64,000 nucleotides of DNA from Oscillospiraceae bacterium (GTDB lineage Bacteria > Bacillota > Clostridia > Oscillospirales > Ruminococcaceae): NCBI GenBank assembly GCA_021201135.1, contig JAJQGT010000009.1, positions 48,715 to 112,714 of the forward strand. Direction: 5' to 3'. Numbering within the stretch: the first letter of the stretch is position 1; each line of letters begins with the position of its first letter. The position numbers were made by a program, and so were the translations under genes. The notes beneath the pieces were generated by a model that had not been told where the DNA came from, made no database searches, and worked only from the letters and a program-made list of their open reading frames with translations. Shown in pieces: positions 24,513-55,371 of this stretch.

Positions 24513-24590
24513 TGGGGTGGATAATCGGACTCGAACCGATGGTCTTCAGAACCACAATCTGACGCGTTAACCAACTACGCTATACCCACC
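24513..24590 (-). tRNA. tRNA-His (GTG)
   Basis: 78 nt on the minus strand: GGTGGGTATAGCGTAGTTGGTTAACGCGTCAGATTGTGGTTCTGAAGACCATCGGTTCGAGTCCGATTATCCACCCCA. Anticodon loop is TTGTGGT. It has the extra 5' G (G-1) and an encoded CCA. Confidence 0.93.
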
Positions 24591-50067: not shown

Positions 50068-50937
50068 TCACTTACAAGTCATGAGGCTATTTACGGAAGT
50101 ATATATCCTTCTGCCGACATAGGAGTTATTCATCACATACAGATGGATTCCGTCTACGCCCTGTGTAATCAGGTCTACGATCTGGTCAACAGCATAGGCA
50201 ATACCGGCATCACGCATAGCAATCGGATTGTTTTCATATCGTTCCATAATCTTCAGGAACTTTGTCGGAAGCGTTGCACCGCAGAGAGAAACCATCCTCT
50301 CAATCTGTTTGCGGTTTGTGACAGGCATGATTCCCGCTTCTATCGGGACGTTGATTCCGGCAATCTGACATCTTTCCAAAAACGAATAGAAGCAATTATT
50401 GTCGAAGAAAAGCCGAGAAATGAGACGGTCTGCACCCGCATCAACTTTTTTCTTGAGATTAAGTATGTCCTCAGCCTTGCTTGATGCCTCAATGTGACCT
50501 TCGGGGTAGCAAGCTCCCGAAACGTCAAAGTCGCCGTTTTGCTTGATGAAAGAAATCAGGTCAGACGCATACTCAAAATCGCCTTTCGGAACCTCGCTGC
50601 CATCCGTAGGCATATCGCCACGCAAAGCTAAGATATTCTCAACACCGATTCGTTTCAGTTCATCAAGCTTTTCAAGAATATCAGCCTTTGTCATTCCAAG
50701 ACAGGTCAGGTGTGCGGCACTTTCGATGCCGTTGTTTTTTATTGCGGAAGTGATTTTGAAGGTCTCTGTGTTGTTTTTGCCTCCCGCCGCCCCGTATGTG
50801 ACACTTATGAAGTCGGGGGAGAGATCCCGAAGCTCTGCAAGTGTGTCATATACGGAGTTTACCGATGATGTGGTTTTCGGCGGGAAGACTTCGAAGGAGA
50901 AGACCGTCTTTGTCTTGAATATTTCAGATATTTTCAT
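50068..50937 (-). CDS. metF: Methylenetetrahydrofolate reductase
   Basis: [21 protein letters not shown]..., SVTYGAAGG and LALRGD. Its ATG at 50937 overlaps the metE stop. Confidence 0.9.
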
Positions 50938-53197
50938 TTCTAAGCTCTCTTGCCGCCTGAACGAGGTTTCGAAGGCTTGCCTCTGTTTCGACGGTGCCTC
51001 TTGTTTTAAGTCCACAGTCGGGATTTACCCAAAGCTTGTCTGGCTGAACCTTGCCAAGCATTTTGTGAAGTGCCGATTTGATTTCCTCAACAGAGGGAAC
51101 TCTCGGCGAGTGAATGTCATAAACTCCGGGACCAACCTCAGTCTTGAAACCGGATTCTTTGAGGGAATCCAGGATCTGAAGGTCGGAGCGGGAAGCCTCA
51201 AAGGTGATAACATCGGCATCCATGTCGTCGATTGCCTTGATTATGTCGGTGAATTCGCTGTAGCACATATGAGTGTGAATCTGGGTTTCCGGCTTGACGC
51301 CGCTGTGAACCAGACGGAAAGCGGGAATTGCCCAGTCGAGGTATTCGCTGTACCAGTCACTCTTTCTTAAGGGAAGTTTTTCTCTCAGAGCGGCTTCGTC
51401 AATCTGGATAACTCTGATTCCGCTCGCTTCAAGATCCAGAACCTCATCCCTTATTGCAAGAGCAATCTGATATGTACTCTCTTTGGTGGATATGTCCTCA
51501 CGAGGGAACGACCAGTTGAGAATTGTAACCGGACCTGTGAGCATTCCCTTGAGCGGCTTGTCGGTCAGGCTCTGGGCATATGTTGACCATTCAACCGTAA
51601 TCGGCTTGATTCTTGAAACATCACCCCAGATAATCGGAGGCTTTACGCATCTGGTGCCATACGATTGCACCCAAGCCTTCTCCGTGAACAGGAAGCCCTT
51701 GAGCTGTTCGCCGAAATACTCAACCATGTCGTTTCTTTCGTATTCGCCGTGAACCAGAACGTCAAGCCCGATATTTTCCTGAAGCTCGATACATTCAGCA
51801 ATTTTCTTGCGGTTAAACTCTTTATACTCTTCCTCGGTTATAGTTCCCTTTCTAAATGCAGTACGATTTGCTTTGACATCCTGAGTCTGAGGGAAAGAAC
51901 CGATAGTTGTTGTCGGGAACTTGGGAAGGTTGAATTCTTTCTTTTGGATTTTTTCTCTTTCGGAGAAAGCAGGAAGTCTTTCAAAATCAGCCTCCTTGAT
52001 TTCAGAAACACGTTTTCTTACGCTTTCATCTGTCGCTCCCTCGCGCTTTTCAAATAGAGCTTCGTTTTTCTTGTATGCTTCCGAAATGCTTCTGTCGGTT
52101 TCGGGGAATAATGCCTTGATTTCAGAAAGCTCCGAAAGCTTCTCCTCTGCAAAGGCAAAATGATTCTTGAAGTCCTCAGACAGCTTAGTTTCGTTATCAA
52201 GAGTATACGGAACGTGCAGAAGCGAACATGATGTGCTGATTACGGCGTTAATTCCTGCATCCGATAAAGTATCAAGGACAGCCAAGGTGCGACTGTAATT
52301 GTTTCTCCAGATATTTTTACCGTTGACGAGACCCGCGAAGAGGAGCTTATCATCCGGGAAACCATTCTTATTGACAAGTGCAAGTGTCTCTCTGCCCTCA
52401 ACAAAGTCGAGTCCAATTCCGTCAAAATCAAGCTTTGCGACATCATTGTAGCAATCTCTTATATCGCCGAAATAGGTTTCAAGGAGAACCTTTACAGAGC
52501 CCTTTGCAGAAAGAATTTTGCTATAAAGTCTTTCAAAAAGCTCTATGTCATCTGCGCTCAGATCATGGACAAGATATGGCTCATCAAACTGAACCCACTT
52601 TGCTCCGAGAGATGAGAACTTCCTCAAAATCTCCGAATAAGCCTCAGCTACGCTGTCTGCAAAATCCGCCGTTTTCCTCTCGCCGGTGAATTTCGTGAGC
52701 TTCAAAAGAGTGAACGCGCCAACTATAACCGGCTTTGTCTCTACTCCCTCAGCTTTTGCTTCAAGATATTCGTCAAAAGGCTTTGTTCCGACGAGCCTGA
52801 CTGAAGTATTGTCGTCAGCTTCTGGAACCATATAGTGATAATTGGTGTTGAACCACTTTTTCATAGCAAGTGCCTTGACATCGCCCTTTTCGCCCTGATA
52901 GCCTCTTGCCATTGCGAAATATGTATCCAATTCCGAAAGCCCAAGCTCAGAATATCTTTCGGGAATAATGTTCAGAAGAACCGCCGTGTCGAGCGTAGTA
53001 TCGTAGAATGAGAAATCGTTTGACGGGATATAATCAAGCCCGGACTCTTTCTCTATAGCCCACTGTGACTTTCTGATCCCGGAAGCGACAGAATAAAGCT
53101 CACTTGACCCCATCTCATTACGAAAATACTTTTCTGTCGCAAATTTGAGTTCTCTCTGGCTTCCTACTCTCGGATAGCCTATGATTGATGACTGCAT
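50924..53197 (-). CDS. metE: Cobalamin-independent methionine synthase
   Basis: AAGGAGAGGA RBS followed by the ATG at 53197. [25 protein letters not shown], about 757 aa, with a C-terminal HMCYSEF zinc motif. Confidence 0.92.
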
Positions 53198-53380
53198 GAA
53201 TATATCCTCTCCTTGTACAAAATCATGTGACCGTTCGTCGGCATAATTATAGCATATTTCGCCCGTTGTCTTCCAATACAATCTTTGAATGCTCAGGTAT
53301 AGATTCAATCTATAGCTTTAAATTTGTTTTCTTTCTTTGACGCTTTTGAAACCTCCGGGTTGAGCTTTACTAAATTAAAA

Positions 53381-53397
53381 CCTATCAACATAGTAGG
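53381..53397. promoter_or_regulatory. Operator-like site (minus strand CCTAC-N7-ATAGG) immediately downstream of the metE -10
   Basis: Minus strand reads TATAAT-C-CCTACTATGTTGATAGG. Confidence 0.4.
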
Positions 53398-53398
53398 G

Positions 53399-53427
53399 AT
53401 TATATCATAAGACAGTCTCGCTGTCAA
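53399..53427 (-). promoter_or_regulatory. metE-metF promoter
   Basis: Minus strand reads TTGACA, 17 nt, TATAAT, with an approximately 195-nt leader. Confidence 0.6.
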
Positions 53428-53465
53428 TACGTTTTTTGAATTCTGAAAAAATTTTCGAAAAGGTA

Positions 53466-53494
53466 TTGACAAAAGAAAATATATCGGTTATAAT
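53466..53494 (+). promoter_or_regulatory. metY promoter
   Basis: TTGACA, 17 nt, TATAAT, with an approximately 200-nt leader. Confidence 0.6.
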
Positions 53495-53551
53495 CCCCGT
53501 AATGCATATCGTTTTAGTATGTGTTTTATTTCGATTGGGAGGAAGGATACT

Positions 53552-53626
53552 ATGCCTACAAATTTCACAGTTCTATTAAGACATAACTTCAGATTCGGTC
53601 GAATGTGTGTACACTGTTGCTGTTGA
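53552..53626 (+). CDS. 24-aa leader peptide MPTNFTVLLRHNFRFGRMCVHCCC (Cys-codon-rich upstream ORF of metY)
   Basis: A strong RBS, GGGAGGAAGGA, lies 6 nt upstream of the ATG. Four of the last six codons are Cys and are preceded by Met. The ORF lies inside the metY leader. Confidence 0.5.
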   Translation: MPTNFTVLLRHNFRFGRMCVHCCC

Positions 53627-53698
53627 TACAGATACAATAACAACGCTTCTTTATCAGAAGCACAGAACAACTTTATCTTACCAAGGAGTGTATACACA

Positions 53699-54991
53699 AT
53701 GAAATACAATTACGAAAACAACTTTAAGTTTGAGACCATCCAGCTCCATGCAGGTCAGGAGAATCCCGATCCCGTAACCGATTCAAGGGCTGTCCCCATC
53801 TACCAGACAACCTCTTATGTTTTTCATAACTCAGCTCACGCCGCAGACCGCTTTGGACTCCGTGATTCCGGCAACATCTACGGCAGACTGACCAATTCCA
53901 CACAGGACGTTTTCGAGTCAAGAATCGCCGCTTTAGAGGGTGGAGTTGCGGGACTTGCGCTTGCTTCCGGAGCGGCGGCTGTTACATACACAATTCAGGC
54001 ACTCGCTCAGAAAGGCGACCATATTGTCGCACAGAAGACCATCTACGGCGGTAGCTACAATCTTCTTGCCCATACTCTTAAGTTAAGCGGAATCGAAACA
54101 ACCTTTGTCGACGCTCATAATCTGGAAGAAGTTGAAGCTGCCATTCAAGATAATACAAAGGCAATCTATCTTGAGACCTTGGGCAATCCTAACAGCGATA
54201 TACCCGATGTTGATGCCATTTCTGAAATTGCACACAGACACGGTATTCCTGTTGCAATCGACAACACATTTGCAACTCCCTATCTTTTCAGACCTATTGA
54301 ACATGGAGCGGACATAGTAATCCATTCTGCGACCAAGTTCATTGGCGGACACGGAACAACTTTAGGCGGAGTTATCGTTGATGGTGGAAAGTTCGATTGG
54401 AAGGCAAGCGGTAAGTATGCACCGATAGCTGAACCGAATCCGAGCTACCACGGAATTTCCTTTGCTGACGCAGTGGGTCCTGCGGCATTCGTAACCTACA
54501 TAAGAGCAATACTTCTGAGAGATACGGGAGCTACAATTTCGCCTTTCAATGCTTTTCTTCTGTTACAGGGAACCGAAACTCTTTCCTTAAGAATTGATCG
54601 TCATGTTGAAAACACAAAGAAAGTTTTGGACTTCCTTGTAAATCATCCGAAGGTCGAAAAAGTAAATCATCCGGCACTGCCCGACCATCCTGACCACGCT
54701 CTGTACGAGAAGTATTTCCCGAACGGAGGCGGCTCAATATTCACATTCGAGATTAAGGGCGGTCAGAAAGAAGCTCACGAGTTTATAGACAGCCTCAAAG
54801 TATTCTCTCTTCTTGCTAACGTAGCCGATGTAAAGAGTCTCGTCATCCATCCGGCAACCACGACACATTCTCAGCTTTCGGAAGAGGAGCTTCTGGATCA
54901 GGGAATAAAGCCGAATACAATCCGCCTATCTATCGGTACTGAGCATATCGATGACATCATTGCCGACCTTTCACAGGCATTTGGGGATTGA
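53699..54991 (+). CDS. metY: O-acetylhomoserine sulfhydrylase (aminocarboxypropyltransferase)
   Basis: 430 aa with [19 protein letters not shown] and [11 protein letters not shown]. Confidence 0.92.
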
Positions 54992-55285: not shown

Positions 55286-55371
55286 TGGTGCCGCTGACCG
55301 GACTTGAACCGGTACGCTTTAGGGGCGAGGGATTTTAAGTCCCTTGTGTCTGCCGATTCCACCACAGCGGC
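55286..55371 (-). tRNA. tRNA-Leu (TAA)
   Basis: 86 nt on the minus strand: GCCGCTGTGGTGGAATCGGCAGACACAAGGGACTTAAAATCCCTCGCCCCTAAAGCGTACCGGTTCAAGTCCGGTCAGCGGCACCA. Anticodon loop is CTTAAAA. It has a long variable arm and an encoded CCA. Confidence 0.92.

Follow-up and report, generated by a model that had tools for sequence, protein, structure and literature searches.

The sulfhydrylase gene metY in a 64,000-nucleotide (nt) stretch of an Oscillospiraceae genome (assembly GCA_021201135.1, contig JAJQGT010000009.1, positions 48,715 to 112,714 of the forward strand; this whole stretch is called the window below) is preceded by a 24-codon open reading frame (ORF) which probably acts as an attenuator that senses sulfur amino acids through ribosome pausing, methionine being the invariant signal and cysteine an accessory one. 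We assign this reading a probability of roughly 0.6, from the comparison of related leaders and from RNA folding calculations. The ORF is led by its own Shine-Dalgarno (SD) sequence, ends in a Cys-rich tail (Table 1) and, as judged by peptide and codon conservation, is a member of a large and so far uncurated family of leader peptides, which occurs in Clostridia and in a small number of other lineages from gut and rumen. An earlier sequence-only reading of this DNA had proposed such an ORF as a Cys-sensing translational attenuator that unmasks the metY ribosome-binding site (RBS); the ORF itself was confirmed in its length, its SD sequence and its Cys-rich end, and the SD duplex with the 16S 3' end amounts to about -8 kcal/mol for the leader ORF of the sister strain L001.

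According to the proposed mechanism, the leader would be translated from its own SD sequence, and when charged tRNA-Met is scarce the ribosome would linger at the point where its P site holds Arg17 (CGA) and its A site AUG18. Scarcity of charged tRNA-Cys would cause the same lingering at the four Cys codons that follow at the window locus. The paused ribosome would cover 53604-53615 and free the metY SD and start region (53687-53698), and MetY would be made; with both amino acids plentiful, the ribosome would reach the stop codon and depart, the helix between the two segments would re-form and metY translation would be held down. In relatives, the same sensor appears to be coupled to an intrinsic terminator and antiterminator instead. 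CGA is decoded inefficiently, via inosine-adenosine wobble. The conserved nascent chain and this poorly decoded codon may together slow the ribosome at one Met codon, in which case a single codon would suffice as the sensor.

The leader-peptide family and its regulon

To follow the leader through related genomes, we drew on species-representative genomes, took their 80 closest metY loci as a reference set and translated the upstream regions; a metagenome set of at least 120 contigs was collected with a stricter nucleotide pattern, and the family counts given here draw on the matches listed together with the genome loci. The nucleotide pattern AAYTWYMGNNNNGGNCGAATG was present in 31 of the 80 genomes with a close metY, every time upstream of the gene and on its strand, and 113 of the 120 metagenome matches listed fall in short ORFs encoding the same motif. 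Conservation of the ORF in relatives, which the sequence-only reading had left to be checked, was found at the amino-acid level. At least 87 distinct peptides follow the consensus M-x3-F-x2-L-L-R-x-N-F-R-x-G-R-M-(C...), and in an alignment of the window peptide with 50 others N12, R14, G16 and M18 never vary. The family core was defined as a short SD-led ORF with [LVIM]-R-x-N-[FY]-R-x-G-R-M, and the window ORF fits this definition. A profile search of the protein database returned 228 clusters, none with a Pfam domain and, where named at all, all annotated as "hypothetical"; the peptide gave no NCBIfam or Pfam match. Within the 64-kb window no further copies of the leader were found, even at two mismatches.

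The Arg residue at position -4 (counted from the invariant Met) is constant and is written with all six Arg codons, the Gly with all four of its codons and the Asn with both, and the usually-Arg position -8 likewise uses all six. Such synonymous variation at constant residues indicates that selection acts on the amino acids, and the leader ORF of the family is therefore very likely translated. The Arg directly before the invariant Met is written as CGA in 29 of 31 members, against 15 of 138 (11%) among the other Arg codons of the same ORFs, and two sister forms (..MMCCC-R-M.. and ..HF-R-M-C..) likewise keep CGA-AUG without exception. Of 87 peptides, 65 have the Met as residue 18 and ten as residue 17, and the tail that follows the Met is hypervariable, with 0-33 codons. 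Short tails contain Cys at 56 of 159 codons (35%), and long tails 11% Cys and 5% Met; the stop codon stands right after the Met, with no Cys (GRM-TGA), in L011, L016 and about eight distinct metagenome forms, and L025 carries a long tail without Cys. Sister forms replace NFRxG before CGA-AUG by runs of Met and Cys codons (MMCCCRM, TMMMCMRM, CMMCMRM). In the window ORF the last seven codons comprise one Met and four Cys, and among 24 metY loci without CGAATG no SD-led, Met/Cys-rich upstream ORF was found.

Taken together, the Met and Cys codons of the tails and of the sister forms point to sulfur amino-acid sensing through translation, with Met as the constant element and Cys as a frequent addition. 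At the window locus methionine is probably the primary signal and cysteine an added input. The Cys sensor of the sequence-only reading therefore keeps its basis in the Cys content of the short tails and proved too narrow as an account of the family, given the invariant LLRxNFRxGR and CGA-AUG, the members without Cys, the methionine-gene targets and the Met runs of the sister forms.

The downstream gene is a metY homologue in 93 of the 112 leaders with a readable downstream gene, and the remaining ones encode NlpA/MetQ-type lipoproteins (about 14), an ATPase of an ATP-binding cassette (ABC) transporter, an MtaA/URO-D-like methyltransferase and a ThiF-like protein. A family leader was required to precede a gene of methionine synthesis or uptake on the same strand, at a distance of 55-300 nt; in the window 96 nt separate the Met18 codon from the metY ATG, on the same strand. 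By annotation the targets are a methionine synthesis and uptake regulon, which in Firmicutes is normally governed by an S-box or a Met T-box. Neither was detected by Rfam at gathering score upstream of metY in 40 related loci. In the window, Rfam at gathering score returned no S-box, no other S-adenosylmethionine (SAM) riboswitch, no T-box and no other family apart from two tRNA genes (55289-55371 and 24516-24589, minus), the sole matches in the 64 kb, and at E<=10 the segment 53100-53800 gave chance-level matches only (E>4). This covariance-model search upheld the sequence-only reading, which had recognised no S-box or T-box motif in the metY leader. Two relatives carry another RNA family some hundreds of bases ahead of their metY leader, namely Gut-1 RNA in L016 (2625-2700, 58.5 bits) and TwoAYGGAY RNA in L002 (2428-2592, 89.9 bits).

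The leader also accompanies the metY clade outside Clostridia, into L013, L051 and L077 (Treponema, including the isolate T. zioleckii kT3), and the same leader and metY clade occur in L035 and L049 (Coriobacteriaceae) and in L076 (Anaerovibrio). This distribution suggests horizontal transfer of the gene together with its regulator, with mis-binning of metagenome-assembled genomes as a possible source of such cases. Candidate carriers in culture are T. zioleckii kT3, Roseburia lenta and Faecalibacterium, the last with the long form that has a terminator.

Leader RNA structure and its predicted outputs

The sequence-only reading had described 12 base pairs, one of them G-U, between the Cys codons of the leader and the metY start site. 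This complementarity was reproduced: TGTGTGTACACT (53604-53615) pairs with AGTGTATACACA (53687-53698) through 11 Watson-Crick pairs and one G-U pair. The 3' arm reaches from the last two bases of the metY SD sequence to the base preceding the metY ATG (53699). The 5' arm, in a detail absent from the sequence-only reading, begins inside the Met18 codon (ATG 53603-53605) and spans Met18, Cys19, Val20, His21 and the first base of Cys22, and hence not Cys codons alone. The helix is present in the minimum free energy fold of the leader (z = -2.4), and a duplex of equal strength between leader and metY start arose in 1.45% of 2000 dinucleotide-preserving shuffles, a frequency which taken alone is suggestive, not overwhelming.

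The effect of a ribosome on this structure was calculated by constrained folding, in which a ribosome-sized stretch was held single-stranded and stepped along the ORF while the energy needed to open the start region of metY (-14 to +4) was computed. Opening cost 14.3 kcal/mol with no ribosome and 12.1-16.6 kcal/mol with the A site anywhere from the start codon to codon 16, the values for codons 1-15 being 14-16.6 kcal/mol; it fell to 5.4-5.8 kcal/mol with the A site on AUG18 to UGC23 and was about 7 kcal/mol on the last Cys codon or the stop codon. The idea that a stalled ribosome opens the metY start is thus supported in silico, with the amendment that the effective positions are codons 18-23 and not the Cys codons alone. 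No hairpin followed by a U-tract was found on the plus strand between the leader ORF and metY, the sole terminator-like match being on the opposite strand.

In relatives, the same codons are followed by a different output. An intrinsic terminator is present in 16 of 86 leaders, 88-142 nt past the invariant AUG, and these terminator-type leaders carry a nucleotide-conserved UCCCGGRC, located exactly 6 nt after the AUG, which is the reverse complement of the 5' strand of the terminator. The antiterminator duplex is calculated at -23 to -48 kcal/mol, compared with -9 to -19 kcal/mol for the terminator, and antiterminator pairing is usually better with own-locus than with other-locus partners; in the long forms, the antiterminator strand is itself part of the coding sequence. 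Under constrained folding, the terminator of 9-10 of these 16 leaders is absent without a ribosome or with the A site at any position up to the invariant AUG, and forms one to two codons later. The folding model would thus make the invariant CGA-AUG the last position at which a waiting ribosome permits read-through, so that a pause would switch the gene on, as in the logic of a starvation attenuator.

Unmasking of the RBS is predicted for a minority of the family. In 15 of 75 leaders a paused ribosome made the start site easier to open by more than 4 kcal/mol; a mock ribosome at the ORF start did so in 4 of 75. Locus-specific pairing of -16 kcal/mol or stronger occurred in eight of 75 leaders where 1.4 were expected from cross-locus pairs. 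The paired sequences differ among L036/L044, L031, L119, L156, L165 and L197, and in all of them the 5' arm begins at or just after the invariant AUG. Moreover, the arms of L036/L044, L156, L165 and L197 are mutually complementary and not individually palindromic, which favours an RNA helix over DNA operators. RBS sequestration as a family-wide mechanism was rejected, as pairing averaged -8.95 kcal/mol within a locus and -8.18 kcal/mol across loci; the pairing proposed for the window therefore recurs in similar form in a subset of relatives and not throughout the family.

Two further features of the leaders were considered. In seven loci among the closest MetY relatives (L005, L007, L008, L009, L087, L097 and L194) the spacer from SD to start, GGCACAUU(U/C), complements GAAUGUGCC at the invariant codons with -17 to -19 kcal/mol, a pairing which could limit re-initiation in the leader. 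As a general feature this pairing of the sensor with its own start, striking by eye in L005 and L007-L009, was discarded, as family-wide it does not exceed shuffles (mean z = -0.5). The spacers of the leaders are A-rich with a weak excess of C (C/G 1.27; more C than G in 38 of 67; the window spacer has a C fraction of 0.24 and a G fraction of 0.09), and with this weak bias only, Rho-dependent termination is not clearly indicated.

Competing explanations

Several observations weigh against a Met- and Cys-sensing attenuator. By itself the window helix reaches a shuffle p of only 0.015, and the sole near-identical strain, L001, has no changes in either arm and gives no covariation test. Both arms are palindromic, so that a reading at the DNA level is possible. 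The RBS-sequestering helix is not family-wide, own-locus pairing being on average no better than cross-locus pairing, and the closest MetY relatives (L005-L008) have start sites that are predicted to be weakly structured and unchanged by a paused ribosome. In the terminator-type leaders, the modelled switch point differs by about one codon between assumed ribosome footprints of 9 and 15 nt. An output, whether terminator or RBS unmasking, could be assigned to under half of the members. Furthermore, it is unusual for starvation to be sensed through one Met codon, and the strong conservation of the peptide could mean a different signal, e.g. a small molecule.

That last point leads to the view that the LLRxNFRxGRM chain and a small molecule, bound in the exit tunnel or at the peptidyl-transferase centre, together arrest the ribosome, and that aminoacyl-tRNA supply is not the signal. 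TnaC arrests in this way with tryptophan and SpeFL with ornithine, both at their own stop codons, and the leaders that end in GRM-stop are reminiscent of them; amino-acid conservation extends over eleven residues beside the putative pause site, and the fixed distance from the start (Met at residue 18 in 65 of 87) is a hallmark of arrest peptides that classical codon-run leaders do not need. We nevertheless regard a ligand-dependent arrest as decidedly unlikely. The pause at R-M predicts the gene to be on in both output types, which is the wrong direction for a ligand that reports sufficiency (Met, SAM), so that a ligand signalling need must be postulated; the sister forms swap the NFRxG peptide for Met/Cys runs and keep CGA-AUG, which fits sensing at the codon level; and there is no evident C-rich, G-poor Rho-loading spacer of the tna/speF type (C/G 1.27). 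The original proposal of a pure cysteine sensor, in which Cys-tRNA shortage stalls the ribosome on C19 or C22-C24, the metY RBS is unmasked and the Arg-Met pair and upstream peptide play no part in sensing, can point to Cys at four of the last six codons, to the 35% Cys of the short tails across the family, to the opening of the start site in silico by a stall on any of codons 19-23, to the placement of MetY in the bifunctional O-acetylhomoserine/O-acetylserine (OAH/OAS) sulfhydrylase subfamily and to the same mechanism having been demonstrated for mycobacterial polycysteine small ORFs (sORFs). It does not account for the members without Cys (L011, L016, about eight metagenome forms ending GRM-stop, and L025), for NFRxGR and CGA-AUG being the invariant features or for targets that are methionine genes, Met importers included; in the terminator-type relatives, moreover, a ribosome on a Cys codon after the AUG is already beyond the switch point under most footprint assumptions. 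For these reasons we consider it unlikely.

The folding calculations also bear on another view, namely constitutive translational coupling, whereby the helix is melted by any ribosome that passes through the last part of the leader ORF, and metY initiates, with regulation, if any, placed elsewhere, e.g. at a transcription factor acting on the promoter. A ribosome on any of the last eight codons, the stop codon included, does open the start site in silico, and operator-like palindromes near many related promoters indicate additional control at the DNA level in the family. Coupling of this kind is very unlikely in our estimation, since it leaves unexplained the amino-acid conservation, the invariant CGA-AUG, the enrichment of Met and Cys codons, the exclusive association with methionine genes and the terminator/antiterminator versions that switch at the invariant codons. 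The least probable account, to which we give very little weight, takes the product to be a trans-acting Cys-rich micropeptide (e.g. for metal or sulfur handling) co-transcribed with metY, or the palindromes GTGTACAC and GTGTATACAC to be DNA operators whose complementarity is incidental. The conserved peptide sequence, the 228 database clusters annotated as hypothetical proteins and the self-complementarity of both helix arms at the DNA level are in its favour; on the other side, the C-terminal tail differs widely in length (0-33 codons) and is missing from some members, the coding sequence of the long forms also serves as antiterminator strand, and the helix arms of the relatives named above (L036/L044, L156, L165 and L197) are complementary yet not individually palindromic.

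A pausing attenuator that reads methionine, with cysteine as accessory, thus remains our preferred reading. A wider formulation is put forward more tentatively: the LLRxNFRxGR chain with CGA in the P site might represent a new class of bacterial arrest peptide, in which one AUG gauges methionine status, the signal being either Met-tRNA or a small molecule that acts in the tunnel. As a substitute for S-box and T-box, such a peptide would govern the methionine regulon across gut Clostridia, and its output could be exchanged among a terminator, RBS unmasking and one or more further mechanisms.

Locus features, comparable systems and significance

The features of the window locus are collected in Table 1. 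The window is nearly identical to the metagenome-assembled Oscillospiraceae genome L001, and its MetY falls in the bifunctional OAH/OAS sulfhydrylase subfamily (TIGR01326). The metY transcript is predicted to start near 53500, which would give a leader of about 200 nt with a 5' untranslated region (UTR) of about 50 nt before the ORF.

Table 1. Positions of the metY leader and of adjacent features in the window.
Feature	Position	Strand	Details
metY promoter	53466-53494	+	TTGACA 53466-71, 17 nt spacer, TATAAT 53489-94; 12/12 match to sigma-70 consensus
Leader-ORF SD sequence GGGAGGAAGG	53537-53546	+	GGGAGG 53537-42, 9 nt before ATG
Leader ORF, 24 codons + TGA (53624-26), encoding MPTNFTVLLRHNFRFGRMCVHCCC	53552-53626	+	start ATG 53552
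Conserved peptide core LLRHNFRFGRM, codons 8-18	53573-53605	+	N12, R14, G16 and M18 family-invariant
CGA-AUG (Arg17-Met18), proposed pause/sensing site	53600-53605	+	CGA 53600-02, ATG 53603-05
Cys-rich tail C-V-H-C-C-C, putative accessory pause codons	53606-53623	+	tail missing in some family members
Predicted sequestering helix, 5' arm UGUGUGUACACU	53604-53615	+	+1 to +12 from A of the Met18 AUG
Internal hairpin GCUUCU-UUAUC-AGAAGC between helix arms	53645-53661	+	without U-tract, not a plus-strand terminator
metY initiation region	53683-53701	+	SD AAGGAG 53683-88; 3' arm AGUGUAUACACA 53687-98; ATG 53699-701
metY, O-acetylhomoserine/O-acetylserine sulfhydrylase, 430 amino acids	53699-54991	+	PF01053; TIGR01326 639 bits, cut-off 495
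metE and metF	metE ATG 53197	-	divergent from metY

The promoters of metE and metY are mirror images within 53399-53494, both matching the sigma-70 consensus at 12 of 12 positions, and they share their flanks, a 14-nt inverted repeat (TGTCAATACGTTTT/AAAAGGTATTGACA at 53422-35/53458-71) and a further pair (GGGATTATA/TATAATCCC at 53396-404/53489-97), which suggests a duplicated or co-evolved divergent pair. A sister of the metY leader element in the metE leader (53198-53392, minus strand, about 190 nt) was considered and rejected: the similarity stops at the promoter, neither an SD-led upstream ORF nor CGAATG is present and the predicted structure is not significant (z = +1.1); Rfam gave no match in this leader. 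A 21-codon ORF (53244-53179, minus strand) overlaps the SD sequence and start of metE, and its first four residues, with nearly all of their 12 nt, match the beginning of the metY leader ORF; it lacks an SD sequence, and the likeness is probably coincidental. The end of metE overlaps the listed start of the metF ORF (50924-51015, minus strand), and from this arrangement the two genes are probably translationally coupled.

An operator-like palindrome, CCTAYC-N5-7-GRTAGG(W)TT, recurs near the promoters of relatives, often twice, over the -35 element and near the transcript start; it was seen in L005-L009, L013, L077, L111, L152, L156, L193 and others. For 28 of 84 leader ORFs, the preceding 100 nt contain a TAGG-type half-site, used as a proxy for the palindrome; the control regions contain none. 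The palindrome appears to resemble the ATAGGAATT end of the Bacillus subtilis CymR box. In L003, L004 and L056 the gene that ends immediately before metY is of the Rrf2 type. In the window the palindrome CCCTACTATGTTGATAGGTTTTA lies at about 53376-53395 (minus strand, just after the -10 element of metE), at the metE promoter and not at that of metY.

Mycobacterial polycysteine leaderless sORFs are Cys-responsive attenuators in which stalled ribosomes block an RBS-sequestering duplex (Canestrari et al., bioRxiv 10.1101/834739). With these the metY leader shares a short upstream ORF with Cys codons near its end and a place before genes of sulfur amino-acid metabolism; for the window, structure calculations predict that a stalled ribosome would likewise unmask the RBS. 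In contrast to the metY leader, the mycobacterial sORFs are leaderless, actinobacterial and defined by their Cys run only, whereas the metY leader is SD-led, has a predicted 5' UTR of about 50 nt, carries an 11-residue conserved peptide with Arg(CGA)-Met and precedes methionine genes; the two have no sequence relationship.

The classical attenuators trpL, hisL, pheL, thrL and leuL are those of Proteobacteria. Like them, the metY leader has codons for an amino acid of the pathway near its end and would let the ribosome position select between alternative RNA structures, and its long relatives share the textbook terminator/antiterminator pair. Classical leaders conserve the codon run only, whereas a specific peptide and one codon pair are conserved here, with a single Met often the sole candidate sensor; the window version, moreover, has no terminator and would act on translation. 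Cys leaders have been predicted in Actinobacteria (PMC1262725), where surveys list no methionine leaders, and the his leader of bacilli, regarded as a first in a 2010 survey (PMC2965389), is a rare Firmicute attenuator.

The metY leader also resembles TnaC, SpeFL, SecM, MifM and ErmCL in having more than ten conserved residues up to a defined, here putative, pause codon at fixed length, and in a paused ribosome that is predicted here to remodel the downstream RNA. It differs from these arrest peptides in showing no sequence similarity to them (no Pfam/NCBIfam match), and a pause that turns a biosynthetic gene on fits starvation sensing better. With the S-box (SAM-I) and the Met T-box, which usually control metY, metE and metQ in Firmicutes, it has in common the regulon, the position in the leader and an output by termination or RBS sequestration; those, however, are RNAs that sense SAM or uncharged tRNA without help from a protein, whereas the metY leader would need translation. 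Full-text literature, with subscription journals outside its coverage, yielded no Met or Cys leader peptide in Clostridia, no methionine-linked arrest peptide and no paper containing the peptide strings, but only the actinobacterial Cys precedents.

We know of no previously described methionine-responsive leader peptide; if confirmed, the metY leader would be the first known and one of very few leader-peptide attenuators in Firmicutes, and an unusual one, with the peptide sequence and CGA-AUG conserved instead of a regulatory codon run. On the practical side, the family would make it simple to annotate hundreds of mini-proteins that microbiome data list as "hypothetical", and would supply a compact Met/Cys-responsive expression element for anaerobes. 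It also opens to test the questions of how a single codon can act as a nutrient sensor and whether bacteria use effects of the nascent chain and of codon pairs to this end. The methionine genes of Firmicutes are the textbook case of S-box and T-box control, and among the abundant bacteria of gut and rumen, with Oscillospiraceae, Lachnospiraceae, Faecalibacterium and some Treponema, a clade of metY, metQ and metN in which neither was detected is predicted to be served by a translated leader instead.

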